NCBI RefSeq assembly: GCF_019947135.1
Contig: NZ_JAGSHT010000004.1
Coordinates: forward strand, 3-32,002
Reading direction: 5' to 3'
From: Occultella gossypii
GTDB lineage: Bacteria; Actinomycetota; Actinomycetes; Actinomycetales; Beutenbergiaceae
Length of the DNA stretch: 32,000 nucleotides
Positions 6,351 to 27,217 of this stretch are shown here, in pieces (the stretch's first letter is position 1; each line of letters begins with the position of its first letter). The position numbers and the translations under genes are program-made. The notes under the pieces are model-generated. The model ran no database searches and was not told the DNA's origin. It saw only the letters and a list, made by a program, of their open reading frames with translations.

Positions 6351-6368
6351 TCAGCGGAGAAGCAACAG

Positions 6369-9300: not shown

Positions 9301-10046
9301 CGGACATGACGCTGCGCCAGCCCGTCCTGCCTGACGACGAATCCTGGGAACGGGCCCAGCTGCGTGCCCAAGGTCTGTTCGGTATCGCGCGAGAGGTCAA
9401 CCTGACCTCGGCTGCGTTACACCGCTTCGGTGAGGCCCTACGCCGCCAATTCACTGGCTTCGTTGCTTCCGCACAGGGACTTGAGCGGGCACTCCACGAC
9501 CACCGAGACTCGCTGGCACTCGACGACACGAGTCCGCGTGTGGTCACCGCACGGGCTTCGAGGGAACTCGTCGATTCGCTGCGAGGCGCGAAGGACGACG
9601 TTGAACTGGTCCGTGTGCTTGCCGGTGCCAAGTTCACCACCGAACCCGCGGTGATCGGCCGGTCGCTGGCCACAGCCGCGGACGTGACCCGAGCACTGGG
9701 TCAGGCCCGGTGGCAGATTCTGCAGCGCGTCGAGTCGATGGACGGCGGGAAGCAGGTCCTCGCGGACCTGCGAATGGCCGCCGCCACGAACGAGTCTTCG
9801 GCCGGGCTGCAATCTGCCCTAGCCCACGCTCAGCGGCGTGCGGATGAGTTGATCATTGTTGTTCCGCCAAGCGTGGTCCCGCCACGGCTGCCCCAGCACC
9901 CGCCGGAAGGGGTGGACTCGATCCTTCTCGACATCGACGCGAGCGGCGATGTCGGTCGCTTACTGACGTCACTCACCCCGGAACTTCGGAACTTCGTCGC
10001 GGCCAACCCGGGCAAGCGGGTGCGTGTCAGCTGGAGGCTGGAGTGA
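6369..10046 (+). CDS. pglY: BREX type 2 P-loop ATPase PglY (1225 aa)
   Basis: Walker A GSFGSGKSH (nt 6594-6620). Large ATPase in the canonical position after pglX. GGAGA Shine-Dalgarno 8 nt upstream of the ATG. The stop overlaps the pglZ GTG (GTGA 10043-10046). Confidence 0.85.
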   Translation: MSTDILDTPLRDVINVPEVVTAGDFVLQLQNGVADAEGTLGHYVVTEGVAEAMDEALDLVEKTVRSGTSAGAFVHGSFGSGKSHFMAVLHLILAGNVHARSLPGLQQSVAGHHGVLGKQFLAIDYHLLGKPNLESAIFDGYLNTVRDRHPGAPLPLLHRSDNLLNDAVTQRRQYGDDAFFAALNGAAAAQSASMGDLGNLGNLGGSLSAETGWTAARFEDALTQPVGGTERELLAQQLVGTMFAGYTASGEWLDIAAGLKVMTTHARTLGYDAIVLFLDELVLWLGQHLSDTAFIQEETSKVAKLVESEMGAHALPMISFVARQRELKDFLGNTADGAEMVAVGQSFQWWEDRFDAITLKAADLPQIVHQRLLQPRDDAGAAAIKAAVQRVKADSRAWSHLLTDEALSSESDFALVYPFSPALVDAMVALSSLMQRERTALKIMSELLSNGRDYLRVRDVIGVGELFDVIVLSQSKPLTKEMQTRFAVAENFYATKLRPYLLDKYGLDQAQADASPRHSPFRTEDRLAKTLLISYIAPGTPSLSNLTAGKLAALNFGTVTSLIPGQEAAQVTTWAREWARNFGDVVVGTETNPLISLQLSGVDYESVIDRVQTEDHPSNRRALVKSLLAEELELVESQNMVSDQTLGFVWRGSRRLVDVLFGNVRERPTMPTDQLRAAPGRWKVIIDYPFDEPGHFPSDDLLRINQEREAGLETNAIVWLPHFLASTRMQDVGRLVVLEHLAKARQFDANASHLAPADREPARQALENQRRALREQLVATLRQAYGISTPKDDVDTGAIKAQEIFTTLRPGLTFRPPVAATLRDGLVKVLDQALGDEYPDHPQFQPADSEVRRAEIRHVLDTVRETIAAGGRLDGIDRARAAELWRVAEPLGLGTPRENVYALSATTFRWQPDFTKAVTEAGRGGDVTVADLRARLAGTGITTDLQDLLVLSWAGLADREILRGGVPAGEPGIGGLTPDMTLRQPVLPDDESWERAQLRAQGLFGIAREVNLTSAALHRFGEALRRQFTGFVASAQGLERALHDHRDSLALDDTSPRVVTARASRELVDSLRGAKDDVELVRVLAGAKFTTEPAVIGRSLATAADVTRALGQARWQILQRVESMDGGKQVLADLRMAAATNESSAGLQSALAHAQRRADELIIVVPPSVVPPRLPQHPPEGVDSILLDIDASGDVGRLLTSLTPELRNFVAANPGKRVRVSWRLE

Positions 10047-12736
10047 GCGCGCCCGCCACCAGCACCGTCCCGCTGGCGTCCGCGGGCTTGGTCACCGAAC
10101 GGGCGCGGTCCCTCGTGTCGCGGGGCAGCGCCCGAATGCTCCTGCTGCGCTCGGAGCCGCGTTGGGACGGGCCTCCTTCGATCGCTGTCGACGGCACCAC
10201 GGTGCAGATCCGGCCGGGTCGTTCCCAGCTAGCGGTGCTCACGGACTATACGGATCTCCCCGACGACGAGTACCTGGTGGTCCTGACCGACCGGAACGAA
10301 CAGGACCTCGGCAGTGCTGTGATGCTGCGGGCCGCCGGGCAGACCATCGAGCGCCCGGATGACTGGAGCGCAGTCGCGAGCATGGTGGGCGCACATACGA
10401 TCGACCCCGCGCTTCGGAAGCAGGGCCAATGGGCCGCTGGCGCACTGCTGGAGCACCGGCCACGCTCGGGGTGGCCACAGGTCACCACCGGTGTGCTCAC
10501 CGCAGATGCCGCCTTCGGCAATCTGCTGGCTGAGCTGCTGGGTGAGCTGCTGCCAGCCCGTTGGGATGCCTCGCGGCTGACCGAGGTGCTGCACGGTGCC
10601 TCGGCCCGGGCAGTTTGGGCCGCGACGGACGAGGACCTGCGGAAGCACCTGACCCGCTGGGCAGGCGACGCACTCGGTCCGCAGACCGTGTTTGTGCTCG
10701 CCGCTGCGGCCAGCACTCAAGTCTCAGTGGTGGCGATCGGCCTCGCAATGGATGTGCTGTGGCCGGCGCAGCCCCCGGCCCAGATCGAAGCAGATCGGAT
10801 CAGCGCACGCACGCGGATCGAACGCTACGTGGGCGGGCGGCCCGTGGAGAGTCTTCACGCGCGCGCCTTGGCCCTGGATGCCCGCGACACGCTCGAGCGC
10901 ATGCTCGACGCGGATGATCCCGACCACGCGAACGTGCTCCGCCAGGCGGAGGCGCTGCTCGGTGATCTCGGCTGGCCCGACGGCGCCCTCCTGTCCTCGG
11001 TGCTGCCCGCAGGCAGGTCGGCGCGCAGCGAAGTCCTCGCGCAGGCGATTCAGGGCTTCCTCGCCGGCCGCGGCACAGATGCCGTCGAGGAAGGGCTGCG
11101 CGATGTACTCGCGCACCGGCTCTCCCGGCACGAGGGACGCGAGGTCGAGGCGGCACGGATGGCCACCCGGCTGGTGCGCTGGCTTGAGAGTGAACCCGCG
11201 GACACCAGCGCCACCCTCGGCGACAGCCTGCACCTGCAGGTCGACGACGGCGGCTGGGCGGATCGGGCGCTCGCCTCCATCTGGACCGGCAGCGCATTGG
11301 CACCGGTGGCGCACGCCTACCGGCGGCTGGCGGAGCGGGTCCAGGCGATCCGAGCCAAGAGGGACTTCACCGCAGCGCAACAACTGGCTGCGGTGACCGC
11401 GACGGACGAGCCGACCCCCGCCGTCGTCCTCCTCGAAAACCTCCTCAAGGAGGTGGTGCACCCCCTGACCAAGGCAACCCGCGTGCTGCTCATCGTGCTG
11501 GACGGGATGAGCACCCGAGTGGCGACCGAGATCGCCCAGGGCGCCATGGAAGCGGGGTGGACCGAGCTGATCCCCGCTGCGTCGTCCACCCGTGCCGCGG
11601 GGCTGGCGGTTCTGCCCACGATGACCACGTTCTCCAGGACGTCGCTGCTCAGCGGCGAGCTCCGTGCCGGGACACAAGCGACCGAGAAGTCCCGGTTCCC
11701 CAAGGTGATCGAGGGACCTATATTCCACAAGGATGACCTCCGGCCCGCCGGTGGAGACCTCGTGGCGCAGGTGGTCGGTACCGCGATCGATGATCGCGCC
11801 ACCACGGTGGTGGGCGTGGTGCTGAACACGATCGACGATTCGCTCGCCAAGGATGACCCCGACGGCACCCGCTGGAACCTCGACCGGGTCCAGCACCTTC
11901 GTGCGCTACTCAATCGCGCCACCCTCGCAGGCCGAACGGTGATCCTGACCGCCGACCATGGGCACGTCGTGGAGCGGGGCGGTGAATATCGGGCGACTGC
12001 GGGTGCGGACACGCGGTGGAGACCGGTGAGTACTGGCGCCGCGGCAACCGATGAGATCGAGGTACGCGGCCGCCGGGTACTCGCAGCGGGCGGCGAAGCA
12101 GTGCTGGCCGTAACCGTAGGCCTGCGCTACGGCGCCAAGGCGGCCGGCTATCACGGGGGCGGGAGCCTCGCCGAGATCACGGTGCCGATCATTGTGCTGG
12201 ACCGCAGCAATAGGCCCCAGATCGGCGGATGGAAGATCGCACCCTCGCAGACCCCGAGCTGGTGGAACGAGCCGGCGGTGAAGCACCGCTACGAGTCGGT
12301 GGTCGAGGAGCGGACGGACAAGACGCGACGGCGCCGGCCAAGGGAGGAGGCACCAGGGCAGGGCAGCTTCGACCTGATCCTGGCCCAGCCGCTACCCGTG
12401 GACGGCACCGCGGCTCTCTCCTCTGTGGTGGATCAACTGCTCGACTCCGACGTATACGCGCGGCAGCGCAAGCGCGCCGGCCGTGGCGCTCTTGGCGATG
12501 ACGTGGTCCGCACGCTGCTCACCACGCTGGCAGATCGGGGCGGTCGAGCACACCGGGAGACCCTTGCCGGGCTGGTCGGGTCGAGCCTTCCCGCCGTGGA
12601 GTCAACACTCGCGGCGCTGCGCCGGTTGCTGAACGTGGAGGGCTACGCCGTGCTCTCTGACGACGCCGATGGCGTCACGGTGGTTCTTGACGAGGCGCTC
12701 CTTCGCGATCAGTTCGAGCTCGGCGGCCAACGGTGA
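10043..12736 (+). CDS. pglZ: BREX alkaline-phosphatase-superfamily protein PglZ (897 aa)
   Basis: PglZ/alkaline phosphatase-type metal-ligand motifs: LLIVLDGMS (D at nt 11501-11503) and ILTADHGH (nt ~11941-11964). GTGA overlaps at both ends. Confidence 0.88.
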   Translation: MSAPATSTVPLASAGLVTERARSLVSRGSARMLLLRSEPRWDGPPSIAVDGTTVQIRPGRSQLAVLTDYTDLPDDEYLVVLTDRNEQDLGSAVMLRAAGQTIERPDDWSAVASMVGAHTIDPALRKQGQWAAGALLEHRPRSGWPQVTTGVLTADAAFGNLLAELLGELLPARWDASRLTEVLHGASARAVWAATDEDLRKHLTRWAGDALGPQTVFVLAAAASTQVSVVAIGLAMDVLWPAQPPAQIEADRISARTRIERYVGGRPVESLHARALALDARDTLERMLDADDPDHANVLRQAEALLGDLGWPDGALLSSVLPAGRSARSEVLAQAIQGFLAGRGTDAVEEGLRDVLAHRLSRHEGREVEAARMATRLVRWLESEPADTSATLGDSLHLQVDDGGWADRALASIWTGSALAPVAHAYRRLAERVQAIRAKRDFTAAQQLAAVTATDEPTPAVVLLENLLKEVVHPLTKATRVLLIVLDGMSTRVATEIAQGAMEAGWTELIPAASSTRAAGLAVLPTMTTFSRTSLLSGELRAGTQATEKSRFPKVIEGPIFHKDDLRPAGGDLVAQVVGTAIDDRATTVVGVVLNTIDDSLAKDDPDGTRWNLDRVQHLRALLNRATLAGRTVILTADHGHVVERGGEYRATAGADTRWRPVSTGAAATDEIEVRGRRVLAAGGEAVLAVTVGLRYGAKAAGYHGGGSLAEITVPIIVLDRSNRPQIGGWKIAPSQTPSWWNEPAVKHRYESVVEERTDKTRRRRPREEAPGQGSFDLILAQPLPVDGTAALSSVVDQLLDSDVYARQRKRAGRGALGDDVVRTLLTTLADRGGRAHRETLAGLVGSSLPAVESTLAALRRLLNVEGYAVLSDDADGVTVVLDEALLRDQFELGGQR

Positions 12737-14076
12737 ACGTCTCTCCACGGCGCCGTCGGGACATCATCGACGCGGTGCGCCGCGGCACCGTGCCACAGCG
12801 GGGCCTGGACCTGATGGCGGTGCGGTTGGACCGGTTCGAGGTCACCGTGGACGAGGAACTCGAATCCGTGGCCGGCGGCGGCGCGCAGATGAAGGCGATC
12901 CGCGGTGAGTACGGCTCAGGCAAGACGTTCTTCGCGCGTTGGCTGACCGAGCGTGCGAAGGATCGCGGATTCGCGACGGCGGAGATTCAGATCTCCGAGA
13001 CGGAGACACCGCTGCATCGGCTGGAGACGGTGTACCGGCGGATCGTCGAGAGCCTGACCACCGCAGAGGCCGCACCTTCCGCGTTGCGGGAAGTGGTGGA
13101 CGGTTGGTTCCACATCCTGCGCACCGACGTCATCGAATCGGGTGCTCCCGCGAGCGATGAGACGTCCGTGCAGAGCGGCGTGGAAGCGCTGCTGGAGACG
13201 CGCCTCGCCGCTGTCAGCAAGACCGCGCCCTCGTTCGCGACCGCGCTGCGGGGCTATCGCGTGGCGATGATCGCCGGCGATGTGGCCCAAGCAGAGGGCT
13301 TGCTGGCTTGGCTGGGAGGGCAGCCGAACGTGGCCGCCTCCGTGCGGCGAGGAGCTGGGCTACGCGGAGAGTTGGACCACTTCGGCGCGCTCGGCTTCCT
13401 GCAAGGGCTGCTGACGGTGCTGCGTGACTCGGACTACGCCGGGTTGGTGGTGGTGTTGGACGAGGTGGAGACGCTGCAACGGGTGCGTTCCGACGTGCGG
13501 GAGAAGTCCCTGAATGCGCTGCGCCAATTGCTGGACGAGATCGACTCGGGACGGTTTCCGGGCTTGTACCTGCTGATCACCGGCACGCCCGCCTTCTACG
13601 ACGGGCAACAGGGCATGCGGCGCCTGCCGCCACTCGCCCAGCGGCTGGCCACGGACTTCACCGCCGACGCGCGGTTCGACAATCCTCGCGCACCCCAGAT
13701 CCGGCTTACGGGGTTCACGCAGGACTCGCTCCTGGAACTCGGGTCGCGGGTGCGTGACCTCTATGCGAGCGGCGCCGACGCCGGCGGGCGGGTGCTGGAC
13801 CTCGTGGATGACGGCTATGTTGCGACACTGGCGGATGCCGTCGCCGGAGAGCTCGGCGGCAAGGTGGGCGTGGCACCGCGGTTGTTCCTGCGCAAGCTCG
13901 TGGACGTGATGGACCGTGTGGACCAGTTCGAGGAGTTCCGGCCGCGGCGTGACTATGCGCTGACCGTCGATCCGGGAGAACTGCACGAGACTGAGACCGA
14001 GGCGCGCAATCTCGGCGCCGTCCGCGGTCCGCGGGCCGTGGCGGCCAGTGTGGATGACGTCGACCTGGGCCTATGA
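12733..14076 (+). CDS. brxD: BREX type 2 ATPase BrxD (DUF2791-like AAA/P-loop protein, 447 aa)
   Basis: Walker A GEYGSGKTF (nt 12904-12930) and Walker B VVVLDEVE. Position after pglZ. ATGA overlap with brxHI at 14073-14076. Confidence 0.8.
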   Translation: MNVSPRRRRDIIDAVRRGTVPQRGLDLMAVRLDRFEVTVDEELESVAGGGAQMKAIRGEYGSGKTFFARWLTERAKDRGFATAEIQISETETPLHRLETVYRRIVESLTTAEAAPSALREVVDGWFHILRTDVIESGAPASDETSVQSGVEALLETRLAAVSKTAPSFATALRGYRVAMIAGDVAQAEGLLAWLGGQPNVAASVRRGAGLRGELDHFGALGFLQGLLTVLRDSDYAGLVVVLDEVETLQRVRSDVREKSLNALRQLLDEIDSGRFPGLYLLITGTPAFYDGQQGMRRLPPLAQRLATDFTADARFDNPRAPQIRLTGFTQDSLLELGSRVRDLYASGADAGGRVLDLVDDGYVATLADAVAGELGGKVGVAPRLFLRKLVDVMDRVDQFEEFRPRRDYALTVDPGELHETETEARNLGAVRGPRAVAASVDDVDLGL

Positions 14077-16190
14077 GCGTTGAGAGCGGGCTGAACGCCG
14101 CCGTCGAGTACCACGTGGTGAACTCGCTCGGCTGGAGTTCCCTGCGGCCGCTGCAGCATGCAGCCGTGGCGCCCGTTCGGGCAGGCAAGGACTGCCTGCT
14201 GATCGCGCCGACGGCTGGCGGCAAGACGGAGGCGGCCCTCTTCCCGCTCCTGTCAGAGATGGTCGAGGAGGACTGGCATGGGCTGTCCGTCCTATACATC
14301 ACGCCGCTGCGGGCACTGCTCAACAACCTGTACCCGCGGCTCGAGCAGTACGCAGGGTGGCTCGGTCGGCGGGTCGCCCTGTGGCACGGCGACGTGGGTG
14401 ACTCGGAGCGCCGTCGAATCCTGGGGGAGCGGCCCGACATGCTCCTGACCACGCCGGAGTCGTTGGAGTCCATGCTGGTGTCGCGGCGCGTTGATCACCG
14501 GGCGCTGTTCGCCGGCGTGCGGGCCGTGGTGATCGACGAGGTGCATGCGTTTGCGGGTGCCGACCGCGGCTGGCACCTGCTCGCAGTACTCGAACGGATC
14601 CAGCGACTTGCTGGGCGCCGGATCCAGCGCGTCGGGCTCTCGGCGACGGTTGGAAATCCGGAGTCGATCCTCACGTGGCTGAGGGGGAGCAACGTTTCCG
14701 CGGGGACCGGAGCCGAGGTAGTGACGGGGGAGGACCACCGGACTGTTACATCACCGGTCGATGTGACACTGGACTACGTCGGGTCGCTGGCGAACGCGGC
14801 TGAGGTGATCTCACGCCTCTACCGCGGCGAGAAGAGATTGGTATTCTGTGAGTCGCGGCGCAGGGCTGAGGAACTCGCGTTTGAGTTGCGCGCCCGGAAC
14901 GTGACGACGTTCGTCTCTCACTCGTCTCTGTCGCGTGACGAGCGGCAGGTGAGCGAACGAGCGTTCGCGGAGGCGCGCGACTGCGTCATCGTCGCCACAT
15001 CCACGCTCGAACTGGGTGTGGACATCGGGGACCTGGACCGGATGATCCAGATCGACGCGCCTCGGTCGGTGGCGTCGTTCCTGCAGCGGTTGGGTAGGAC
15101 CGGGCGGCGCGCCGGGACGCAGCGGAACGCGCTCTTCCTCGCCGTGGAAAGCGAGGGGTTCCTCCGCGCTGCCGCGCTCCTACTGCTGTGGGGCCAAGGA
15201 CTCGTGGAGCCCGTGGTGCCTCCGCCTTCGCCGCGACACTTGGCGGCTCAGCAGCTGCTGGCACTGGCGTTGCAGGAAGGCAGGTTCGGGGCCACGACTT
15301 GGCGGTCCTGGTGGGACGGACTTGGGTTCATGGACGAGGCCGCACCGATCCTCGAGTATCTGCGTTCCGAGCAGTTTCTGGTGGAGGACCAGGGCATGGT
15401 GTTCATCGGCCCGCGCGCGGAGAAGGAGTTCGGGCGCCGGTACTTCATGGACCTGCTGGCCTCATTCTCCGCTGACCTCGAACTGCGGGTGGTGGCCGGT
15501 GTGCGTGAGATCGGCATGGTCTCGCCGTTGGCGCTCCAGAGCTGGAAGTCTGGCGGACCGGCGAAGAGGCTGCTGCTAGCAGGTTGGGCGTGGCGGGTGG
15601 AGTCTGTGGACTGGGAGCGGCGAGAGGTCGTCGTGAGCGATGCACCCGATAAGGGCAAGGTGCGCTGGCCAAGCGAAGCCGTCGCCGAGTCCTTCGAACT
15701 GGCACGCGCGCAGCGCGACGTCCTCCTCGGCAGAACTCCCGACGTCGTCTTGTCTCGGCGAGCAGTGGAGCGGCTCGCGCGCATCCGAGATGAGATGGCG
15801 GATGTGGTCGACCCGGATGGTCTCGTGGTGCTCGAGGCGCCAGCGGGACGGGAGTTCTGGACCTGGGCGGGCCTGCGGGCCAACGAGACACTCATCGCCG
15901 CGCTCGGTGCAGGGGATGGTGCGGACAACCATCGATTCACACTGGACGAGGCAACGGGGCTGTCCGATCTGCGTGCTGCACCCGTGGACGTGGCGTTGCC
16001 GGTCATCAGCCCGCAGGCTGTCGACGGCCTGAAGTTCTCGGCCGCGCTCGCTCCGGAGCTAGCGACTGCAACGCTTGCCGAGCGTTTCGTCGACCGGAGC
16101 GGGGCGATGGAGACAATCCAGTCGCCGATTGTGGCCACGTCGATATCATCTCGTCGTGGACAACTGCGCCGATTGGGCGAGGAGCTCTGA
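14073..16190 (+). CDS. brxHI: BREX type 2 Lhr-like DEAD/DEAH-box helicase BrxHI (705 aa)
   Basis: SF2 motif I APTAGGKTEAA (nt 14205-14237), motif II DEVH (nt 14535-14546), motif III SAT, and motif VI QRLGRTGRR. It is the last gene of the canonical type 2 order. Confidence 0.85.
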   Translation: MSVESGLNAAVEYHVVNSLGWSSLRPLQHAAVAPVRAGKDCLLIAPTAGGKTEAALFPLLSEMVEEDWHGLSVLYITPLRALLNNLYPRLEQYAGWLGRRVALWHGDVGDSERRRILGERPDMLLTTPESLESMLVSRRVDHRALFAGVRAVVIDEVHAFAGADRGWHLLAVLERIQRLAGRRIQRVGLSATVGNPESILTWLRGSNVSAGTGAEVVTGEDHRTVTSPVDVTLDYVGSLANAAEVISRLYRGEKRLVFCESRRRAEELAFELRARNVTTFVSHSSLSRDERQVSERAFAEARDCVIVATSTLELGVDIGDLDRMIQIDAPRSVASFLQRLGRTGRRAGTQRNALFLAVESEGFLRAAALLLLWGQGLVEPVVPPPSPRHLAAQQLLALALQEGRFGATTWRSWWDGLGFMDEAAPILEYLRSEQFLVEDQGMVFIGPRAEKEFGRRYFMDLLASFSADLELRVVAGVREIGMVSPLALQSWKSGGPAKRLLLAGWAWRVESVDWERREVVVSDAPDKGKVRWPSEAVAESFELARAQRDVLLGRTPDVVLSRRAVERLARIRDEMADVVDPDGLVVLEAPAGREFWTWAGLRANETLIAALGAGDGADNHRFTLDEATGLSDLRAAPVDVALPVISPQAVDGLKFSAALAPELATATLAERFVDRSGAMETIQSPIVATSISSRRGQLRRLGEEL

Positions 16191-16893
16191 TGCGACCCAG
16201 GATGCGGACAGCGAGGGTCATGGCGGAGGTCTTGGCGGGTGGAAGGGCGACCACGAATTCCGTCCGCGGTCCCAACGCCCGTCCCAAGTGCTAGTCGGCA
16301 AAGAGGGGTGAGGGCGTGCGCGGTCGGGCTCATGGTCCGCTTGCTCGACACCGCCGCCGTTCTGGTGTCGAAGTCATCCTCTACCAGCAATGTCCTTAAA
16401 CTCCAGAACCGGCGCAGGCGCGAGCCGGTCGTCCTTGTAGTCGCTGTCCGCAACCACTGCGTAGCAGTGCTGGTCACCCCGCCAGATGGGTCGAGAACAC
16501 CCCAACTGCCGAGCAGGCCACCCGAGCCGGAATCGCCACGCACGTACCCGTAGATTAAATGGCTGTCAAACACAGGGTGCCGGTTGAGGTGGGGCGGCTC
16601 GCGTTGGCAGTATCGAACTGCGGTTCCTAGTGATCTGCCCGGCGGATCATTGCTGCTGATCGATCTGTGGCAGCGCCTGACTCTCTGATGCGATCGGCCG
16701 GGACGTCCTCATTGAGGTCGCTGGGGCCGCGATCACGGGCCGGCTTCGATTCTGAGCCAATCGACCGTGCACCCCCTTCGGAGCTCCGCAGAACCTGCGG
16801 GGCGTGCTCGTCACGGTCCTCCAGGATGCCCAATGTGCACCGCCCGATAGGCGTCGCTAACTGCTGCTAGCTGGGCCGTGGCATGCTGTCGAT

Positions 16894-17724
16894 GTGCGTC
16901 ACCCAAACATGGACCTGCGGACGGTGTCCGTCCGCGCTCGTCAGATCGCTGTTCCCTTAGAGCACGCGATGAGCCTTGCGATCGACTCGGAGGTGGATGC
17001 CGTCATAGCAACTATGTTCGAGCACCAGTTCGACGCAGCGCCGGTGATGACAGAGGGGGTCCCGGTAGGGGTCTTCGTTCCGGCTTCGGAAGCGGCGCGG
17101 GGACCGGGCGCCGTGGTGGGCGAGCTCATGCTTCCGCTGGCCGCTCCGTTGATCGTGTCTGGCGAGGCAACCCTGGACCATTTGATGGAACGCATGGCTC
17201 GCGAGCCATTTCTGTTTGTGCTCGGGGAGTCAGGGATTACGAGCTTCGTCACCCCGGCGGACCTCGGGTCGGTGCCAGTGCGGACCCATTTCTATCTCCG
17301 GTTGGCACACCTCGAGACTGTCCTCGGGAACTACTTGCGCGTCCGCTACCCAGACCAGTCGCAGATCGTAGCCCTCCTGTCATCGCCGAGACAAGAGTCG
17401 CATGCCAAGATCGCCAATGAGCTGCGCGGAAGAGACACCTTCATTGATGATGTGTCGTGCTTGAGCGTACGGGACTTAGTGCAAGTCCTCGGTAAGGAAG
17501 ACTCCTACAGGAGGGCGACCAAGGAGGCAGGCGTAGGCTGGCGCCGCGCAATCAGCGGTCTCTCCGACTTCCGCAACGACATCATGCACCCGACCCGCAC
17601 GCTGGCGGGCGCGGGCGTCTCCCGTCCCGAGTACCTGCTGGAGCGGCAGCGACGGATCGATGCACTTATTCAGGCTACTCGATCCGTGGCCAATGAGCCC
17701 AGGGCTCTCGCGAGAGTAGATTGA
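16894..17724 (+). CDS. CBS-pair domain protein fused to a C-terminal HEPN-like (RNxxxH) putative RNase domain
   Basis: Two CBS-like repeats: ...DSEVDAVIATMFEHQFDAAPVMTEGVPVGVFV... and ...SGEATLDHLMERMAREPFLFVLGESGITSFVTPADL.... A helical C-terminal half carries FRNDIMH (R at nt 17572-17574, H at 17587-17589), which fits the HEPN Rx4-6H motif. The start is GTG 16894 or ATG 16909. Confidence 0.6.
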   Translation: MRHPNMDLRTVSVRARQIAVPLEHAMSLAIDSEVDAVIATMFEHQFDAAPVMTEGVPVGVFVPASEAARGPGAVVGELMLPLAAPLIVSGEATLDHLMERMAREPFLFVLGESGITSFVTPADLGSVPVRTHFYLRLAHLETVLGNYLRVRYPDQSQIVALLSSPRQESHAKIANELRGRDTFIDDVSCLSVRDLVQVLGKEDSYRRATKEAGVGWRRAISGLSDFRNDIMHPTRTLAGAGVSRPEYLLERQRRIDALIQATRSVANEPRALARVD

Positions 17725-17994
17725 CGGATCGAGGCTCAGGGGTCCCGCCAGCGGCATGAGTCTCAGTTCCATGCCGGGCCGAGTGCGGCAGAGGGCGTGC
17801 ATGTCATCCCCCAGTGCCGGTCAGTCCCGGGTAAGGGGCAACCCTGGAGAGACCAACAGCCGGCCGTGGTGCTCAACGACCCACGCCGCGCCGACATCCA
17901 CGCCTCGGTAGTCACACCCGCACCGTTCGTGCTGGGATGTTGGCTCGAACCCCGCCCTATCTTTGCAGCTACCCTTGTGGCATCGTATGGCGGT

Positions 17995-18135
17995 ATGCCG
18001 AAAGAACCCGCGGGGCTCCACTACTGTCCGGCTTGCGATAAGAACCAGCCGCATACCGAGCACTACAGCAATACGGCGCAAGGCAAGAAGCGCGAGGCGC
18101 TGATTTGTGACGTCTGCAACGCGTACAACGACTGA
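17995..18135 (+). CDS. Small (46 aa) zinc-ribbon protein
   Basis: MPKEPAGLHYCPACDKNQPHTEHYSNTAQGKKREALICDVCNAYND has CPAC and CDVC pairs 23 residues apart. Third-position GC is high in this frame. The ORF track gives 17797-18135, but that N-terminal extension looks non-coding. Confidence 0.45.
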   Translation: MPKEPAGLHYCPACDKNQPHTEHYSNTAQGKKREALICDVCNAYND

Positions 18136-18154
18136 AGGTTCTGGACACGGGCCA

Positions 18155-18697
18155 ATGAGTACCGAAGACGCCGGCCAGGAGGTGCCCGTCGGCGATTTCG
18201 GAGGCGTGCCGAACGCTTGGCTGCCCGACCTCGGCAAAATCGCCGTCTCGTCGGGGCGGATTGAATTCGCCGCTTACCAGATCGCCGTAGCCCTCGATTT
18301 GAAGCAGCCCCGCAACGGTAGGAGCCGCAACTTCAGTTCCCAGTGCGAGGACATCCGGCAGCGGCTGGAGGACCCGTGGCGTCCAGCCTGGTTGAGGGAT
18401 CCGACGTCGTGGAGCGAGGACGTCGCGGCCTGGACTATAGACGCCACGACGGCGATGAATCAACACCGCAACACCATCCTTCACCGGCCGTATTTTCACC
18501 AGCGTACAAATGACGACTGGCTGCTGAAGACGATGAGACGGCTAGATGACTTCAGTTCGACTGTTCCGGCTTCGCACCGGGAGATCGTGGACGCGGTGGA
18601 GCGCTTGAGGCCGATCGCGGGGCGCGGCATCGACCTGTGGATCGCAGGACTTCGAACCATGCCGCCGGAGGGACGTATCGATCTAGTGGAGGATTGA
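18155..18697 (+). CDS. Second HEPN-like (RNxxxH) protein, Abi-type
   Basis: ~180-aa helical protein with NQHRNTILH (R at nt 18467-18469, H at 18482-18484). ATG 18155 lies 19 nt after the zinc-ribbon stop. An alternative upstream ATG at 18107 would overlap that gene. Confidence 0.55.
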   Translation: MSTEDAGQEVPVGDFGGVPNAWLPDLGKIAVSSGRIEFAAYQIAVALDLKQPRNGRSRNFSSQCEDIRQRLEDPWRPAWLRDPTSWSEDVAAWTIDATTAMNQHRNTILHRPYFHQRTNDDWLLKTMRRLDDFSSTVPASHREIVDAVERLRPIAGRGIDLWIAGLRTMPPEGRIDLVED

Positions 18698-18698
18698 C

Positions 18699-19060
18699 GG
18701 CTCTACGCGGCTCGTCGTGAAGGCGCGCTCTGATGGATGCTCGCGCTACTGCTCGAGCGGCGCCGGCGACAAGGATACGGGCTAGGTGGTCGCGGGTGTT
18801 GTGGAAGCTGCGACCGGTTCGTTTGATGTTCTTGATAGTCGTGTTCGCCGCCTCAACGTTCACGTTCGTGGCCCCGGTGACGATGGGCACGTCGATGGCA
18901 TCCCACCAGGTGACGATGGTCTCGTGGAGGCGGTCGGTCTCGGGCATGTTGACGACCTGGAGTCCGCGTCATGGTGGGCGAAGTGACGTACGTACTTGAA
19001 GGACGTGTGCCGTCGAGAGGTGCCGGCCCAAGGATCGTCACGCTGACGAGCATCCTCGCT
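18699..19060 (-). mobile_element. Relic of an ISL3-family insertion sequence: terminal inverted repeat plus a frameshifted, 5'-truncated transposase C-terminus
   Basis: Minus-strand PETDRLHETIVTWWDAIDVPIVTGATNVNVEAANTTIKNIKRTGRSFHNTRDHLARIL matches the conserved ISL3 transposase C-terminus as I remember it (..TNG.TEA.N..IK..KR.G.GFRNF.NYR.R.LL). An upstream piece (..FKYVRHFAHHDAD..) is in a different frame, with a stop between the two. GGCTCT at 18699-18704 resembles the ISL3 IR terminus. Confidence 0.6.
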
Positions 19061-19135
19061 GGCTGACTCCTTCCCGATCCGACGTCGCCCATTCGTCTCA
19101 CCTCGTCTCAGATCGTGAGCATCCCGCCCCCTTCG

Positions 19136-19164
19136 TTGATCGCCCTGTCGGTTCTCCCTAGCGT
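19136..19164 (+). promoter_or_regulatory. Possible sigma-A-type promoter for the ABC operon (-35 TTGATC, 17-nt spacer, -10 TAGCGT)
   Basis: Read directly: TTGATC at 19136-19141 and TAGCGT at 19159-19164, about 55 nt upstream of the TTG start. Pattern match only. Confidence 0.25.
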
Positions 19165-19218
19165 GACCGTTGACTGCGCCGCCCTCACTCGGCGTACCCC
19201 CCACGCATTGGAGCACCC

Positions 19219-20832
19219 TTGTCACGCAGACGTGCCCTGCCCGCGATCGTCGCGGCTGGCCTCGCCCTGACCCTCGGCCTCGCGGCGTGCAGTGCCGGGG
19301 GTGACGAAGGCGGCGGTGGTGGTGACTCGACCACCGGCACCACGGGCGAGCCCCAGGCCGGCGGCACCCTCACCTTTGCCGCGTCCCAGTCGCCCGGTTG
19401 CCTCGACCCCCAGCAGCTGGCGCAGGCCATCACCATGACGGTGGGCCGGCAGATCACCGACTCCCTCACCGTGCAGGACCCCGAGACCGGTGAGATCAAG
19501 CCGTGGCTGGCGAGCGAGTGGGAGGCTTCCGCGGACGGCACCGCGTTCACCTTCACCCTGATCGAGGGCGCCACGTTCTCCGACGGTGCCCCTGTGAACG
19601 CTGAGGCGGTCAAGGCGAACTTCGACGGCATCGTCGAACTTGGCGCCCGGTCGCTGCTCGGGTCGACGTACCTGGACGGGTTGGTCAGCACCGAGGTGGT
19701 CGATCCGCAGACGGTCACGTTCACCTTCGACGAGCCGAACGCGCAGTTCCTGCAGGCGACGGCCTCGATCACGCTCGGGCTGCTGTCCCCGGCCACGCTC
19801 GCGCTCACCCCGGAGGAGCGCTGCGCCGGTGACCTGATCGGGTCCGGGCCGTTCGTGCTCTCCGACTACGTGCAAGACGAGTCGATCACGCTGACCAAGC
19901 GGGAGGGCTACGACTGGCCGAACGCGCTGGCCGAGCACACCGGTGACGCCTACCTGGACACCGTCGTGCTGCAGCTCATCACCGAGCCGGCGGTGCGGAC
20001 CGGGTCCCTGCAGTCGGGTCAGGTGCAGGGCATCCAGGACGTGCAGCCGGTGGACCAGGACCTCTTCGACGGCGGCGAGTTCAGCCTGCTCACCCAGGCC
20101 AACCCCGGGATCGTGACCGGGTTCGTCCCGAACACCCAGCGCCCCGCCATGGCCGACCCGGCCGTGCGGGACGCACTGCAGGTCGCGATCAACCGGCAGG
20201 AGACCGTCGACACCCTCTACAACGACCGGTACCTGCCGGCCACCTCCGTGCTGGCCGGCACCACCCCGGGCTACCTGGATCTGACCGCCGAACTCGCATA
20301 CGACCCGGAGACAGCGATCGAACTGCTCGACGGCGCCGGCTGGGTGGCGGGCGCGGACGGGATCCGCGTCAAGGACGGTGAGCCGCTCACGCTGAGCCTG
20401 CTCGGCGGGGGACCGGAGTCCGCCCTCGTGCAGCAGCAACTGGCAGCCGTGGGAATCGACCTGCAGATCCGGCAGGTGGACGCCGCGCAGTACGTGGAGA
20501 TCCAGTCCAGCGGCGACTACGACCTGGCCGGCTACAACCTCACCCGCGCCGACCCGGACGTGCTCAAGGCGATCTTCTCCACCGAGTACACGAACGTGCC
20601 CCGGCTGGAGGCGAATCCGCTCGATGACACGCTCGCCGAGATGTCGGTGACCCTGGACACCGACGCCCGCAACGAGCTCGCCGGGCAGGCCCAGCAGACC
20701 ATCATCGGCGAGGGCTACAACATCCCCCTTGTGGAGCAGTTCCAGGTGTTCGCGTTCAGTTCCGACGTGCAGGGCATCACCCTTGAGGCGTCCACCCGCC
20801 TCAGTTTCTACGACACGTGGCTGGAGAACTGA
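19219..20832 (+). CDS. ABC transporter substrate-binding lipoprotein, peptide/nickel (family 5, DppA/OppA-like)
   Basis: TTG start with GGAG 6 nt upstream. The N-terminus MSRRRALPAIVAAGLALTLGLAACSAGG has a twin-Arg-like signal and a LAAC lipobox. Size and composition fit family 5 binding proteins, and the permease and ATPase genes follow. Confidence 0.85.
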   Translation: MSRRRALPAIVAAGLALTLGLAACSAGGDEGGGGGDSTTGTTGEPQAGGTLTFAASQSPGCLDPQQLAQAITMTVGRQITDSLTVQDPETGEIKPWLASEWEASADGTAFTFTLIEGATFSDGAPVNAEAVKANFDGIVELGARSLLGSTYLDGLVSTEVVDPQTVTFTFDEPNAQFLQATASITLGLLSPATLALTPEERCAGDLIGSGPFVLSDYVQDESITLTKREGYDWPNALAEHTGDAYLDTVVLQLITEPAVRTGSLQSGQVQGIQDVQPVDQDLFDGGEFSLLTQANPGIVTGFVPNTQRPAMADPAVRDALQVAINRQETVDTLYNDRYLPATSVLAGTTPGYLDLTAELAYDPETAIELLDGAGWVAGADGIRVKDGEPLTLSLLGGGPESALVQQQLAAVGIDLQIRQVDAAQYVEIQSSGDYDLAGYNLTRADPDVLKAIFSTEYTNVPRLEANPLDDTLAEMSVTLDTDARNELAGQAQQTIIGEGYNIPLVEQFQVFAFSSDVQGITLEASTRLSFYDTWLEN

Positions 20833-23208: not shown

Positions 23209-24842
23209 CCGCGGTGCTGACGATCGAGGGCCTGCGCGCCGGGTACCGGACCCGGGACGGGTTCACCGAGGCCGTGCAGGGCGTGGACCTGGAGTTGGGC
23301 GCCGGGGAGGTGCTCGCCGTGGTGGGGGAGTCCGGCTCCGGGAAGAGCACCCTGGCGCAGTCTGTGATTGGGCTGCTGCCAGGGAACGGTGTGGTGACGG
23401 GTGGGCGGATCCTGCTCGGCGACCGGGACATCACGGCGCTGGGAGGGCGGGCCATGGACCAGGTCCGCGGCGCCCAGATCGGGCTGGTGCCGCAGGACCC
23501 GGGGGTGTCGTTGAACCCGGTGCACCGGGTCGGCCGGCAGATCGCCGAGGTGCTCAAGGTGCACCGGCTCGCCCGCGGGGAGGCGGCTCTTGCTCGCGCC
23601 GTGGAGATTCTGGCTTCGGTCGGGATTCCGGATCCGGAGGTACGAGCCCGCCAGTACCCGCATGAGCTCTCCGGCGGGCTGCGCCAACGGGTGCTGATCG
23701 GGATGGCCCTGGCCGCCCGGCCACCGCTGGTGATCGCCGACGAGCCGACGTCCGCGCTGGACGTCACGGTGCAGCGGGTGGTCCTGGACCACTTCGCGCG
23801 GGTGATCGCCGAGACCGGGACGTCGGTGCTGTTCATCACCCACGACCTGGCCGTGGCCGCGGACCGGGCGGACCGGATCGTGGTGATGCAGGGCGGGCGG
23901 ATCGTGGAGACAGGGCACGCGCGGCAGGTGTTGACCGACCCGCAGCACGAGTACACGAGGGTGCTGCTCGCGGCGGCGCCGTCGCTGACTGGCACTCGGC
24001 TGATCGGGACCTCTCCTGCGCCGGGCGAGCGGACGCCGTCGGGCGCTGTTGAACGCGAGCCGGCGCTCGAGGTGAGCGACCTCGTCAAGGACTTTCCGCT
24101 GCCCGGGCGGCGGGAGCCGCTGCGGGCGGTGGACGCGGTGTCCTTCACGATCCCGGCGGGGTCGACGTTCGCGTTGGTGGGGGAGTCGGGGTCCGGGAAA
24201 TCGACCACCGCACGGATGGCGACCCTGCTCGAGCGGCCCACGTCGGGCCAGGTGCGGATCGCCGGTCGAGACGTGACCGGGCTGCGCGGGGAGGCGCTGC
24301 GGCAGCTGCGGGCCAGCGTGCAGGTGGTCTATCAGAACCCGTACGCGTCGCTGGATCCGCGGTTCAGCGTGGAGCGGATCATCGCCGAGCCGTTGCGGGC
24401 GTTCCGGGTCGGGTCCTCCTCGGACCGGGCAGCGCGGGTGGCGGAGCTCTTGGATCAGGTGGCGCTGCCTGCGTCGATGGCGTCGCGGCGGCCTGCGGAG
24501 CTCTCGGGCGGGCAGCGGCAGCGGGTGGCGATCGCGCGGGCGCTGGCGTTGCGGCCGGATCTGGTGGTGCTGGACGAGCCGGTGTCTGCGTTGGATGTGT
24601 CGGTGCAGCAGCAGATTCTTGAGCTGCTCGTGGACCTGCAGACCGAACTTGGGCTCAGCTACCTGTTCATCTCCCACGACCTGGCCGTGGTGCGGCAGGT
24701 GTCGAACACGGTCGGGGTGATGTGGAAGGGGCGGATCGTGGAGGCTGGGGCGACGCAGGCGCTGTTCGATGATCCGCAGCATGAGTACACGCGGGAGTTG
24801 TTGGAGGCGATCCCGGGGCGGGGTGCTGGGGCAGTGCCGTAA
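23205..24842 (+). CDS. Fused double ABC ATPase (DppD-DppF-like, 545 aa)
   Basis: Two complete nucleotide-binding domains: Walker A GESGSGKST twice, signatures LSGGLRQR and LSGGQRQR, and Walker B LVIADEPTSALD and LVVLDEPVSALD. Confidence 0.92.
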   Translation: MTAVLTIEGLRAGYRTRDGFTEAVQGVDLELGAGEVLAVVGESGSGKSTLAQSVIGLLPGNGVVTGGRILLGDRDITALGGRAMDQVRGAQIGLVPQDPGVSLNPVHRVGRQIAEVLKVHRLARGEAALARAVEILASVGIPDPEVRARQYPHELSGGLRQRVLIGMALAARPPLVIADEPTSALDVTVQRVVLDHFARVIAETGTSVLFITHDLAVAADRADRIVVMQGGRIVETGHARQVLTDPQHEYTRVLLAAAPSLTGTRLIGTSPAPGERTPSGAVEREPALEVSDLVKDFPLPGRREPLRAVDAVSFTIPAGSTFALVGESGSGKSTTARMATLLERPTSGQVRIAGRDVTGLRGEALRQLRASVQVVYQNPYASLDPRFSVERIIAEPLRAFRVGSSSDRAARVAELLDQVALPASMASRRPAELSGGQRQRVAIARALALRPDLVVLDEPVSALDVSVQQQILELLVDLQTELGLSYLFISHDLAVVRQVSNTVGVMWKGRIVEAGATQALFDDPQHEYTRELLEAIPGRGAGAVP

Positions 24843-25424
24843 GCAGGTCACCAATCTTGGCTCCAGTTTGGAGGAAGCGGAAACGCCCATGCCTTTGGTC
24901 GCGGTCACGATCAAGCGTCGGTCGTGGCGCTCGGCAACCCAGCCGAGGACGCGTTCGTCGGGCTCGGTGTCACCGGTTAGCGGGTGACGGTTTAACGGCC
25001 GAAATGAACGTTCGGACGACCATCTCGTTGTGGACAATCGTGGAGTCAGCGAAAATCTCGTCGGGAGGAGGCGGCATGCGGGCGGCACGGTGATCACCAA
25101 GAGTGCCTCGTGGGCAGCTCTGGTAGCCGGCCCGGCGCACCGCGCCAGGCAAATGCATCGACCCGGACCGCGAATCAGCAGCGCACGCTCGACCAGCTCG
25201 ACGCCATCGGGACCAAGACCGCTGCCGAGTAGGTACAAGAAGTCATCGCCGAGGACGCCGCCTGTAGCCGTATGTCTGAGGGTCGGGCGAATGAACTACG
25301 ACGCGACGTGCGGGCACCGAGAGTCGGACCAGTCAGAGGGCGACCGTCGGCTGCCGCGGCCGGAATCAAGAAGTGCGGCCAATCTGGCTCACACTCTCGC
25401 GGCCTTCCGGTACGGTCACGTTCT

Positions 25425-25658
25425 GTGAAGCCTTGGAAGGACGACATCGTGGAGTCAGTTCGGGCGTTGGGCGGGGAGGCGGACCTGTCCGAGATCTACG
25501 AACGCGTCGCTCAACGGCGAAACCCGCTGCCGAAGTCTTGGCAGGCGATTATTCGCAACGCAATCGAGTCCCATTCGTCCGACTCGGACAACTTCCGGGG
25601 TGAGGACCTCTTCTATTCCGCCAAGGGCCGGGGCGGCGGACGATGGGGCCTCCGATGA
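25425..25658 (+). CDS. Small winged-helix protein resembling Mrr-N / HARE-HTH-type DNA-binding domains
   Basis: ..IVESVRALGGEADLSEIYERVAQRRNPLPKSWQAIIRNAIESHSSDSDNFRGEDLFYSAKGRGGGRWGLR follows the pattern seen at N-termini of Mrr-like restriction proteins. The start is uncertain: GTG 25425, or GTG 25449, which has GGAAGGA upstream. Confidence 0.45.
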   Translation: MKPWKDDIVESVRALGGEADLSEIYERVAQRRNPLPKSWQAIIRNAIESHSSDSDNFRGEDLFYSAKGRGGGRWGLR

Positions 25659-26043
25659 GCGGACAGCCGCGAACGCTCCCGCAATGAGGGTGTTGTCGGG
25701 TAACGGCGCTCAGACACCGGCGGAGGGACCATTCCCGACCTCGATGCGATCGGCGACCAACTACTGGACTTCCACCGAGTTTTCGACCTGGTGCGCAGCC
25801 GACGTTGGAGGTCGCCCCGGAGCGTGCCGCATTGCGGCTGCGCCGAGTAGTCGCGGAGCTCAGGGACGCGATGGACCGGTCTGACCTCGTCGCAACCGGG
25901 GACGCGCCTACTGACATCACCTATAGGCGGTGTTAGTGCTGCGGTGACCTGGCATTGACCTCGAGGGCGTGGTGCGCGAGGTCCACCAGTCGAACATGAT
26001 CAAGTTTGACTCGCGGGGCGCAACCTTCTGCGGGTGGACGAGG

Positions 26044-26694
26044 TCACGGAAGGATCGTCTCGACGAGAGTTCCTTGGTGCCAGCGCGCGACGTTAACGAC
26101 CGAGGGCGCGACGTCAGCCTGACCGCACACCGTGAGTTCCCGGACTGCGTCCTTGCCGCGCTTCCGCCTCCATGCCTCCCACGGGTACTGCTCAAGTGGC
26201 GTAAAGATACTTGGCCCGCGCTTAGGCATGTTCGGCACATGGATGGATCCGGTGTTGTATGGCGCGAGTTCCACGGCAGGGTGGGACTCGAGGAATATCG
26301 CAGTGTCAAGCGTCAAGACATGTTGTGGGTGTGTTCGGTACATCCGCGCGCGGAGTAGACGTTGAAGGTCGCTCTCGTTTACGTGGAAGAACACCCGGGC
26401 GTTGAGGGCGTTCAGGTAGTCCTGTTCACTCACTCCTGGTTCTAGGCAGACGCTGAGGAACTTCAATGGTCTCTGGTCGCGTACGGTCGCTTCGGGGAAC
26501 CCTGCTCGGGTCAACACGTGGCTGGTGCGTCGGACACTGTCCAAGATCTCAGCGCGGACGTGGACCGGCGGCCGGTACCGGTCGAGTAACGCCCGAGTGC
26601 TGAGCAAACCGTGCTCTCGAATGGAAGGCCACGAGCCATCGGCCGCCGTATGGAAGAGCCGCGGGTACTTGGCTATGAAGTCGGATCGTTCCAT
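26044..26694 (-). CDS. Hypothetical protein with a possible ADP-ribosyltransferase-superfamily fold (DarT/DUF4433- or Tpt1/KptA-like)
   Basis: Intact 216-aa ORF with AGGAG before the ATG. It shows an ordered H...aromatic...E arrangement: RLFHTAADGSWPSIREHGLLS near the N-terminus, ARVFFHVNE mid-protein, and AVRELTVCG near the C-terminus. This is reminiscent of DarT (YHiTh..NL.sI...G.L / YVPFYF / aEFLV). Confidence 0.4.
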   Translation of the reverse strand: MERSDFIAKYPRLFHTAADGSWPSIREHGLLSTRALLDRYRPPVHVRAEILDSVRRTSHVLTRAGFPEATVRDQRPLKFLSVCLEPGVSEQDYLNALNARVFFHVNESDLQRLLRARMYRTHPQHVLTLDTAIFLESHPAVELAPYNTGSIHVPNMPKRGPSIFTPLEQYPWEAWRRKRGKDAVRELTVCGQADVAPSVVNVARWHQGTLVETILP

Positions 26695-26704
26695 GAGCTC
26701 CTAC

Positions 26705-27217
26705 TTGTGTCAGCGTCGGACGGCGCACCAAGCCCGAGAGCAGAGGATGCCGCGTCCGGAAGAAGTTGCGGTCAACGAAACCGCGGCACCGGGGGCGCTA
26801 TCGACGTCCTCGAAGAACTGTAGCGTCCCGGTGAGTTGCTTGTTCCGGTAGGCCTCGGGGTGTTGGACCGAGATGTGGTCCGCGGGCAACGCGCCATCCG
26901 TCCGAGTTCAGCTGGCGGAACGGCGTCGGATCGTCCAGTGGAATGACGCGACGGGACGCGCTCAGGCAGCCAGTCCTTGTTTGCTCGTGGGCTCCCCGGG
27001 CTTTCGCAGTACTTCACCTGGAAGACGTGGTGGCCATCCCACGACGCGCCCACGATGCCTGCACCTCAGCCGACGTAATCCCCGTAAGAGTCGCGTTTCG
27101 ACCGTTGTCCGTGCCTGTACCGAGGATCGTGGCGTCGGGTCCGTAGTGGCAGATGAGTACGGATTTCACCATGCGCTCGAACTCTTGCGCACCGAGTTCC
27201 TCGATTGCGTAGCGCAC
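26705..27217 (-). pseudogene. Decayed N-terminal fragment of an Mrr-like (restriction-endonuclease-fold) domain gene with at least 3 frameshifts
   Basis: Hand translation. Frame 1 gives VRYAIEELGAQEFERMVKSVLICHYGPDATILGTGTDNGRNATLTG.... The next frame gives ..WDGHHVFQVKYCESPG..KDWL (the FE..v..ll / g.g.D.GrDa / W..Q.Ky pattern). Further shifts give ..IPLDDPTPFRQLNSDGW.. and ..HISVQHPEAYRNKQLTGTLQFFEDV... No single frame is open across the region. Confidence 0.55.

Follow-up and report, generated by a model that had tools for sequence, protein, structure and literature searches.

A predicted stand-alone CBS-HEPN protein, apparently a distant relative of the anti-phage protein DS-11, in the 3' tail of a type 2 BREX island of Occultella gossypii

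Gene content of the 3' tail of the island

The stretch of DNA analyzed here (the window) comprises 32,000 nt of Occultella gossypii (Micrococcales, Ruaniaceae), within which we examined three open reading frames (ORFs) on the + strand at 16894-18697 that follow a type 2 bacteriophage exclusion (BREX, Pgl) operon at 31-16190 (+ strand). A preliminary description of this DNA had read the three ORFs as a new cassette in which two HEPN ribonucleases (RNases) enclose a zinc-ribbon gene, possibly an abortive-infection module backing up BREX. The three co-directional ORFs are indeed present: ORF1 (16894-17724, + strand, 276 amino acids (aa)), encoding a CBS pair and a HEPN-type domain; ORF2 (17995-18135, + strand, 46 aa; longest version from a GTG at 17797), encoding a CPAC-x23-CDVC peptide; and ORF3 (18155-18697, + strand, 180 aa; longest version from a GTG at 18107, 196 aa), carrying the motif HRNTILH. 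Gaps of 270 bp (17725-17994) and 19 bp (18136-18154) separate them, and the motifs to which attention had been drawn (FRNDIMH, HRNTILH and the CPxC/CxxC pair) are all found in the sequence. The reading that we consider probable is nonetheless a different one, namely that the region constitutes the variable 3' part of a BREX island, that ORF1 is a stand-alone protein with a CBS pair and a Swt1-like HEPN domain, homologous to the anti-phage protein DS-11, and that no three-gene system exists.

The BREX operon upstream is as had been claimed, in that all six type 2 genes were matched by both PADLOC and Pfam (PADLOC bit scores: PglW 732, PglX 1548, PglY/BrxC 1259, PglZ 778, BrxD 653 and BrxHI 927), with the 5' end of the PglW gene cut by the window start. 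On the downstream side, the C-terminal end of an ISL3-family transposase lies on the - strand at ~18773-18947 (Pfam DDE_Tnp_ISL3, E 7.5e-6, model positions 184-240 of 240, which are its final 57 positions). This insertion sequence (IS) relic is the right edge of the island, and a core oligopeptide ABC transporter operon begins at 19219. The GC content is 62.5% in ORF1, 62.4% in ORF3 and ~59% in ORF2 compared to 65-70% in the BREX genes; a drop had been claimed and is confirmed, but its size had been overstated, BREX having been put at ~75%. Two of the three ORFs correspond to NCBI proteins of O. gossypii with 100% identity (P0001 for ORF1 and P0025 for ORF3).

ORF1 combines a CBS pair with a predicted Swt1-like HEPN domain

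An AlphaFold2 model of ORF1, derived from 22 sequences, reached a predicted local distance difference test score (pLDDT) of 92 and a predicted template modeling score (pTM) of 0.86. In this model, residues ~12-125 form two beta-alpha-beta-beta-alpha units and residues 127-272 are all-helical. The first of these parts (16927-17268, + strand) is assigned to a CBS pair, or Bateman module, by Foldseek and Pfam. When the model was compared to the PDB with Foldseek, the best 50 matches were all CBS-pair proteins, aligned over ~120 columns with target TM scores of 0.6-0.76 and including CorC/CNNM, CBSX, DarB and the regulatory domain of cystathionine beta-synthase. The Pfam CBS model itself is sub-threshold for ORF1 (E 3.9e-4) and matches 99 of 146 relatives.

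The all-helical C-terminal domain (residues ~127-272; 17272-17709, + strand) is predicted from the model and from its conservation to be of HEPN type. Its putative catalytic motif, R227-N-D-I-M-H232 (an Rx4H motif within FRNDIMH; 17572-17589, + strand), is identified both by conservation and by alignment to DS-11, with R227 and H232 never replaced in 22 close or in 40 diverse sequences and kept in at least 90% of 146. Elsewhere in the domain E141 shows no variation, and R149 and D185 show almost none. In the model, E141 sits in a long helix (residues 127-151), while RNDIMH stands at the end of a helix at residues 223-231 that is followed by a loop (232-244) and a further helix (245-266). HEPN active sites have been described as an Rx4-6H motif that closes helix 3 and has a polar residue directly following the arginine, together with an acidic residue in an upstream helix (PMC3710099), and the modeled active-site layout of the ORF1 helical domain is the one given for HEPNs. 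Direct matches to known families are few: the Pfam models HEPN_Swt1, STY4199 and MAE_28990 weakly match five of the 146 relatives, and a hidden Markov model (HMM) of the ORF1-family C-domain compared to PDB sequences returned nothing below E 0.2. Together, the model, the conservation and the DS-11 alignment uphold the earlier assignment of ORF1 as a CBS and HEPN protein with a conserved R-N-x3-H motif, which we would describe, on the strength of the model, as a stand-alone protein composed of a CBS pair and a Swt1-like HEPN domain.

The N-terminus of ORF1 is kept in its homologs (MRHPNMDL.. versus MRYPELDL.., with a shared ..IRARxLAxPL..), and this conservation places the start of the gene at the GTG at 16894. 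The start annotated by NCBI (P0001, 251 aa, from MSLAID) is 25 codons too late, the affected stretch being 16894-16968.

ORF1 is a divergent short-form relative of DS-11

DS-11 (E. coli WP_000257686.1, 365 aa) is a validated one-protein CBS and HEPN anti-phage system from the DefensePredictor study (DeWeirdt et al., Science 2026; PMC13092281). In E. coli it confers protection against phages, and the substitutions Y157A in its CBS portion and R330A and H335A in its HEPN portion each abolish defense. Its authors propose that the HEPN nuclease is regulated by an adenine derivative bound to the CBS portion, Y157 being the predicted adenine contact, and their own HHpred analysis called the C-domain HEPN_Swt1 at 0.98 (PMC13092281). 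We took the DS-11 sequence from the supplement of that paper. On the NCBIfam model NF053863 ('CBS domain-containing anti-phage protein', DS11_antiphage), an equivalog with a cutoff of 260 bits, it scores 404.9 bits and is therefore the right protein.

Profile comparison with hhalign related ORF1 to DS-11 at 95.1% probability (E 3.2e-8) for a 22-sequence ORF1 profile and at 97.6% (E 4.7e-12) for a 146-sequence profile. The latter alignment covers 211 columns, pairing ORF1 residues 11-240 with DS-11 residues 122-342, and runs from the CBS pair through the HEPN domain up to and including the catalytic motif. It places R227 opposite R330, H232 opposite H335, F46 opposite Y157, and E141 opposite the glutamate of 'IENHIR' in DS-11; the F46 column is aromatic in all but one of the close ORF1 homologs. 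In line with this, NF053863 matches 80 of the 146 ORF1 relatives (best E 4e-12) and is the only recurrent NCBIfam family among them, and in relatives P0036 and P0083 the match runs over both domains (model positions 72-284 and 47-290 of 305, respectively).

Several observations weigh against this link and have to be set beside it. ORF1 itself scores 14.1 bits on NF053863 (E 0.019), over the CBS part only, and BLASTP of ORF1 against DS-11 gives no significant match, so that the connection rests on profile methods. Furthermore, the N-terminal ~120 residues of DS-11 are absent from ORF1, which has 10 residues before the start of the alignment, and the experimental evidence is limited to E. coli DS-11, a protein outside the ORF1 subfamily. 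Taking both sides, we regard ORF1 as homologous to DS-11 at the superfamily level over both domains, as judged from sequence profiles. Because it reaches 14 rather than 260 bits, shares ~18-20% identity and lacks the ~120-residue N-terminus, it is not a DS-11 equivalog, and the comparison instead points to a divergent short-form relative.

ORF1 and DS-11 share a single-gene organization, the order of a CBS pair and then a Swt1-like HEPN domain, a catalytic R-N-D-x-M-H (RNDIMH and RNDVMH, respectively), an aromatic side chain where adenine contact is predicted (F46 and Y157, respectively) and the helix glutamate (E141 in ORF1). They differ in length (276 aa in ORF1 versus 365 aa) as well as in the low identity already given, in the basic partner of the helix glutamate, which is shifted from ExxxR in DS-11 to Ex7R in the ORF1 family, and in host, E. 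coli as opposed to an actinobacterium.

The close homologs of ORF1 number 24 and are scattered over Micrococcales, Propionibacteriales and metagenomes, with named relatives in Ornithinimicrobium, Tessaracoccus, Brachybacterium and Cryobacterium; one relative with 29% identity comes from a Chloroflexia metagenome-assembled genome. With HMMER, an ORF1 profile matched 2,761 cluster representatives (50% identity) at E<=1e-3, 1,550 at E<=1e-10 and 187 at E<=1e-30. Among the best 150 matches most were near the full profile length and the remainder were short fragments. The DS-11 kind of protein would thus extend far past the curated NCBIfam model, to at least 187 clusters at E<=1e-30 and ~1,550 at E<=1e-10, and among Actinomycetota the short form, without the N-terminus of DS-11, is frequent.

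Some family members are longer. Six relatives (P0062, P0064, P0086, P0109, P0123 and P0147) carry a conserved C-terminal extension of ~100 residues that has no Pfam match and contains the motifs GRIRIP...IFP...LRG...YDPR.GPDR.RSGVL.IGR, and other long members are fused to HARE-HTH, DUF429 or HTH_17, so that the family is architecturally diverse. When ORF1 was compared to plasmids with tblastn, only distant CBS-domain proteins on Halobacteria megaplasmids were found (H1-H7). One of these, a Halarchaeum plasmid match (H1), covers ORF1 residues 21-234 and so reaches the HEPN motif, and archaeal CBS-HEPN relatives may exist.

ORF1 relatives occur in diverse defense islands without ORF2 or ORF3

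The genomic contexts of ORF1 relatives fall into ten distinct cases, including the window, in which ORF1 lies beside type 2 BREX. Six others combine relatives with a DruE-like helicase, a DpdE/DrmD SNF2 protein and a methyltransferase of Druantia/DISARM-like character (L006, of L006/7); with MzaC/MzaD of the Mza system and GmrSD (L008); with GmrSD, Dcm, MvaI/BcnI and Vsr (L009); with an MmeI-type restriction-modification enzyme, a helicase, T5orf172 and a NucS-like protein (L011); with a cyclase of a cyclic oligonucleotide-based anti-phage signaling system (CBASS) and S-4TM (L015); and with Tiamat TmtA (1336 bits) and PLD (L016, of L016-18). Seven of the ten contexts are defense islands, and the systems in them differ. 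An all-against-all BLASTP of the neighboring ORFs at the ten loci detected no shared neighbor family and no conserved partner. Occurrence in seven islands with different systems is the pattern of an autonomous defense gene and not of a BREX accessory, and we conclude that ORF1 is independent of BREX and only co-located with it. The location of the region in a defense island, as originally proposed, is borne out by BREX on one side and by the neighborhoods of these relatives, but the suggestion that it backs up BREX is not, as no functional link to BREX was found and the relatives stand beside many different systems.

The other three contexts contain a group II intron (L010), genes of no known function (L012) and an HTH/PIN toxin-antitoxin pair (L014). 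They are not obviously defensive and count against a role of ORF1 in immunity. They also bear on a rival explanation, in which ORF1 would have entered the island by accident and, as a housekeeping or stress RNase, would adjust RNA stability in response to the adenine nucleotides of the cell. In its favor, the sensing of energy state and nucleotides is a general function of CBS domains, and a signaling role of exactly this kind has been proposed for CBS-HEPN fusions (Anantharaman et al. 2013; PMC3710099). Against this explanation stand the seven defense islands of different systems, the patchy distribution of the 24 close homologs, the GC content of ORF1 below that of its flanks, the adjacent IS relic and other mobile genes, and the protection against phages conferred by the homolog DS-11 (PMC13092281). 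On balance, we consider a housekeeping function improbable and retain the reading of ORF1 as a stand-alone defense gene.

At two of these three loci, L010 (10807-11346, - strand) and L014 (4474-4917, + strand), an HTH_17 (excisionase-type) protein is encoded just downstream of the ORF1 relative. The two proteins are 37.5% identical, their hosts are Tessaracoccus massiliensis and Ornithinimicrobium sp., and they are without a counterpart in the window; in L014 the HTH_17 protein is followed by a PIN_3 toxin.

Whether the three ORFs travel together can be read from the same loci. With ORF1, ORF2 and ORF3 as tblastn queries, none of the ten ORF1-relative loci was found to hold a relative of ORF2 or ORF3, and neither ORF1 nor ORF2 was found in any of the two to three distinct contexts of ORF3 relatives (L001/2 and L003-5/L013). 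Since the trio never co-occurs elsewhere, the cassette is refuted within the limits of public data, and the gene-neighborhood comparison that had been suggested for it leads to a divided outcome, in which ORF1 relatives do lie in defense islands but the trio is not conserved and ORF1 has no fixed partner. This outcome weighs on the proposal that ORF1, ORF2 and ORF3 form a new three-component abortive-infection system, with two HEPN RNases and a zinc-ribbon adaptor that back up BREX. The proposal draws on the shared strand, on the 19 nt between ORF2 and ORF3, on the presence in both ORF1 and ORF3 of an RNxxxH motif that is rare in the window, and on the slightly lower GC content of all three ORFs relative to BREX. 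Beyond the lack of co-occurrence, however, ORF2 has no homolog and lies 270 bp from ORF1, ORF3 is not demonstrably a HEPN protein, and DS-11, to which ORF1 is related, functions as one gene (PMC13092281). We hold a three-component system to be highly improbable.

ORF2 and ORF3 are likely passengers

ORF2 has a coding-like base composition (GC at codon positions 1/2/3 of 0.55/0.43/0.77). A homolog search among 5.8 billion proteins returned nothing, and NCBI annotates no gene at this position. A CxxC-x(8-35)-CxxC arrangement occurs once in the six-frame translation of the window, in ORF2, compared to ~0.6 occurrences expected from the cysteine frequency, so that the motif alone is weak evidence. 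ORF2 is probably a non-gene or a lineage-specific micro-ORF, and its CPAC-x23-CDVC peptide is possibly a candidate zinc ribbon; the CxxC pair reported for it is real, but the zinc-ribbon gene into which it had been made has no homolog and may not be a gene at all.

After the TGA of ORF1, the same frame stays open for 136 stop-free codons that end in the ORF2 peptide (17722-18135), with a coding-like GC pattern of 0.68/0.50/0.73, a curious coincidence given that the homologs favor neither a fusion nor read-through. We considered ORF2 as a C-terminal extension severed from ORF1 in this frame and rejected the idea because the closest homologs end where ORF1 ends. The C-terminal modules of the longer family members ('GRIRIP...YDPR.GPDR', HARE-HTH, DUF429 and HTH_17) likewise argue against an ORF1-ORF2 fusion, none of them being a zinc ribbon.

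ORF3 belongs to a family of only three clusters in the same set of 5.8 billion proteins. Between loci its + frame retains 62-72% amino-acid identity versus ~41-43% for the antisense frame, and as the + frame is the conserved one, ORF3 is a real gene. The HRNTILH motif (nt 18467-18484), whose catalytic-type residues are R105 and H110 in the 180-aa numbering and R121 and H126 in the 196-aa numbering, is invariant in all three family members, which are, however, 63-69% identical overall. RNxxxH occurs three times in the 52,554 residues of the six-frame window translation, two of the three being those of ORF1 and ORF3, and by chance is expected ~0.06 times per 1000 residues in the window, or in ~1% of proteins the size of ORF3.

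Database comparisons gave no family for ORF3. No Pfam, NCBIfam, PADLOC, PHROG or PDB match was obtained, Pfam at E 10 was empty for all three members, and hhalign against the HEPN profiles of ORF1 and DS-11 gave 0.4-7% probability, confined to the motif region. An AlphaFold model of ORF3 from three sequences reached pLDDT 44 and has a long predicted helix that ends at the motif; at this pLDDT its Foldseek matches, none of which fell below E 1, are meaningless. Structural prediction, which had been recommended for these proteins, thus delivered CBS-pair structures for ORF1 but nothing for ORF3, and the 'second HEPN' of the preliminary description comes down to a six-residue motif with empty profile searches. 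Since RNxxxH is rare by chance and stands at a helix end in the low-confidence model, ORF3 may yet be a minimal HEPN, an assignment that we hold possible and lean against.

In a tblastn comparison to plasmids and a scan of viral contigs ORF3 was absent, and a scan of metagenomes recovered one already-known locus only. Its homolog in L001 follows sugar-metabolism genes near YhcG/NERD, that in L003 lies among small unknown genes, and an all-against-all BLASTP of the neighbors at ORF3-relative loci found no conserved partner. ORF3 is a rare, unrelated and mobile orphan gene, the product of which is predicted to be helical.

A narrower proposal would pair ORF2 with ORF3 as a toxin-antitoxin-like unit independent of ORF1, with a zinc-ribbon antitoxin or regulator and a minimal HEPN toxin. 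The two ORFs share a strand and a 19-nt spacing, ORF2 is coding-like at third positions (0.77), RNTILH has the polar residue after the arginine that is typical of active HEPNs (PMC3710099) and lies at the end of a long helix in the low-confidence model, and the ORF3 homolog of L003-L005 also has a small ORF (92 aa) 24 nt upstream. This 92-aa protein, however, contains no cysteines and has no similarity to ORF2, while the L001 homolog has no small upstream ORF; ORF2 itself is without a homolog, and ORF3 is without detectable HEPN profile or fold similarity. A pair of this kind seems to us quite unlikely, and what we favor is that ORF2 and ORF3 would be passengers, carried where the island is decaying and is bounded by the IS relic.

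A proposed mechanism for ORF1 and its relation to known systems

The domain architecture of ORF1, its homology to DS-11 over both domains, the conservation of its catalytic and ligand positions, its solitary organization and its defense-island context are consistent with a mechanism that we infer from the mutants of DS-11 and the general biochemistry of HEPN and CBS proteins (PMC13092281, PMC3710099). ORF1 alone would act as a ligand-gated RNase. It would dimerize, and the cleft of its CBS pair, at F46, would bind an adenine-containing nucleotide whose level or identity is altered by phage infection. Ligand binding would switch on a composite HEPN active site (R227, N228 and H232, helped by E141), which would cleave RNA in a metal-independent manner and thereby stop translation, leading to abortive infection or cell arrest. 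By analogy to DS-11, ligand gating, RNase activity and an anti-phage function are thus predicted for ORF1, and the RNase-based defense role suggested for it at the outset remains the best reading. The substitutions R227A, H232A and F46A would be ready-made mutants for probing which nucleotide these sensors read.

It had also been stated that no named defense system has this gene content. For ORF1 this no longer holds, as it appears to be a distant DS-11 homolog, and in 2013 Anantharaman et al. (PMC3710099) had already described fusions of CBS with HEPN domains of the Swt1-like clade, for example alr3009 and Pelobacter propionicus gi 118580987. Compared by description, the Swt1/Abi2-clade fusions have the same domain pair and a CBS portion predicted to sense nucleotides and to control the HEPN RNase. 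They differ from ORF1 in that some carry an extra HD phosphohydrolase domain, and they were described by computation and discussed as signaling and not as immunity proteins (PMC3710099).

Other HEPN effectors offer looser parallels. The HEPN-MNT (HepT-MntA) pairs and AbiD/F, AbiU2 and AbiV likewise use a small Rx4H HEPN RNase as a growth-arresting effector, and ORF3 would make sense under this model alone. Unlike in these systems, neither MNT nor a recognizable antitoxin lies beside ORF1 or ORF3, in keeping with the earlier remark that an MNT partner is missing (no nucleotidyltransferase match among the ORFs of 16191-19225 on both strands), and neither protein matches any Pfam, PADLOC or PHROG model of these families. 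Csm6/Csx1 and Cas13, which are HEPN RNases activated by a ligand or by RNA, resemble ORF1 in the concept of a HEPN dimer that is turned on when a nucleotide ligand occupies a separate sensor domain. The predicted ORF1 sensor, however, is a CBS pair and not CARF, and ORF1 has neither a CRISPR association nor sequence similarity to these proteins.

Two further interpretations may be mentioned. The actinobacterial short-form CBS-HEPN proteins (~270 aa, with Ex7R in place of ExxxR and no DS-11 N-terminus) could be a functionally distinct immune sensor that reads another nucleotide signal than DS-11, perhaps from neighboring systems such as BREX or CBASS. ORF3, separately, could be the founder of a very rare new family of minimal HEPN-type toxins that work without a recognizable antitoxin. 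We regard these interpretations as unlikely. Under the reading that we prefer, an apparent new three-gene system becomes something more ordinary, with ORF1 a divergent actinobacterial CBS-HEPN member and ORF3 a low-priority orphan. A just-validated CBS-HEPN family, for which an anti-phage role has so far been shown for one E. coli protein, would thereby extend into Actinomycetota, where its short form lies in defense islands beside many systems.

Further features of the window

The ~700 bp between BrxHI and ORF1 (16191-16893) were examined with a six-frame table of GC by codon position, Pfam and Rfam. None of the six frames shows a coding signature, the ORFs of the spacer have no Pfam match, and Rfam gave no match; the spacer is probably decayed or non-coding DNA. 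A hidden gene within it was ruled out by the lack of a frame with a coding signature and of a Pfam match. A 63-codon segment on the minus strand (16377-16565; ..PIWRGDQHCYAVVADSDYKDDRLAPAPVLEFKDI..) has a protein-like look and could be a gene remnant.

No RNA element was matched by Rfam at E<=1 in the region, and the counts of promoters and terminators were at the level of shuffled sequence. Repeats were short only and are probably due to chance. The same probably applies to a similar 17-nt string at the stops of ORF1 (17719-17735, GATTGACGGATCGAGGC) and ORF3 (18692-18708, GATTGACGGCTCTACGC), which are 82% identical.

Past the ABC transporter operon, a second stretch of lower GC content (24500-30000; 60-65% versus ~70-73% in its flanks) may be another island. 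It encodes a DUF7002 protein (26044-26694, - strand), an OGG-like putative glycosylase (27426-28187, - strand), two ORFs with no Pfam match (26873-27454, + strand, and 28343-29590, - strand) and a large helicase-C protein (29751-31979, - strand).

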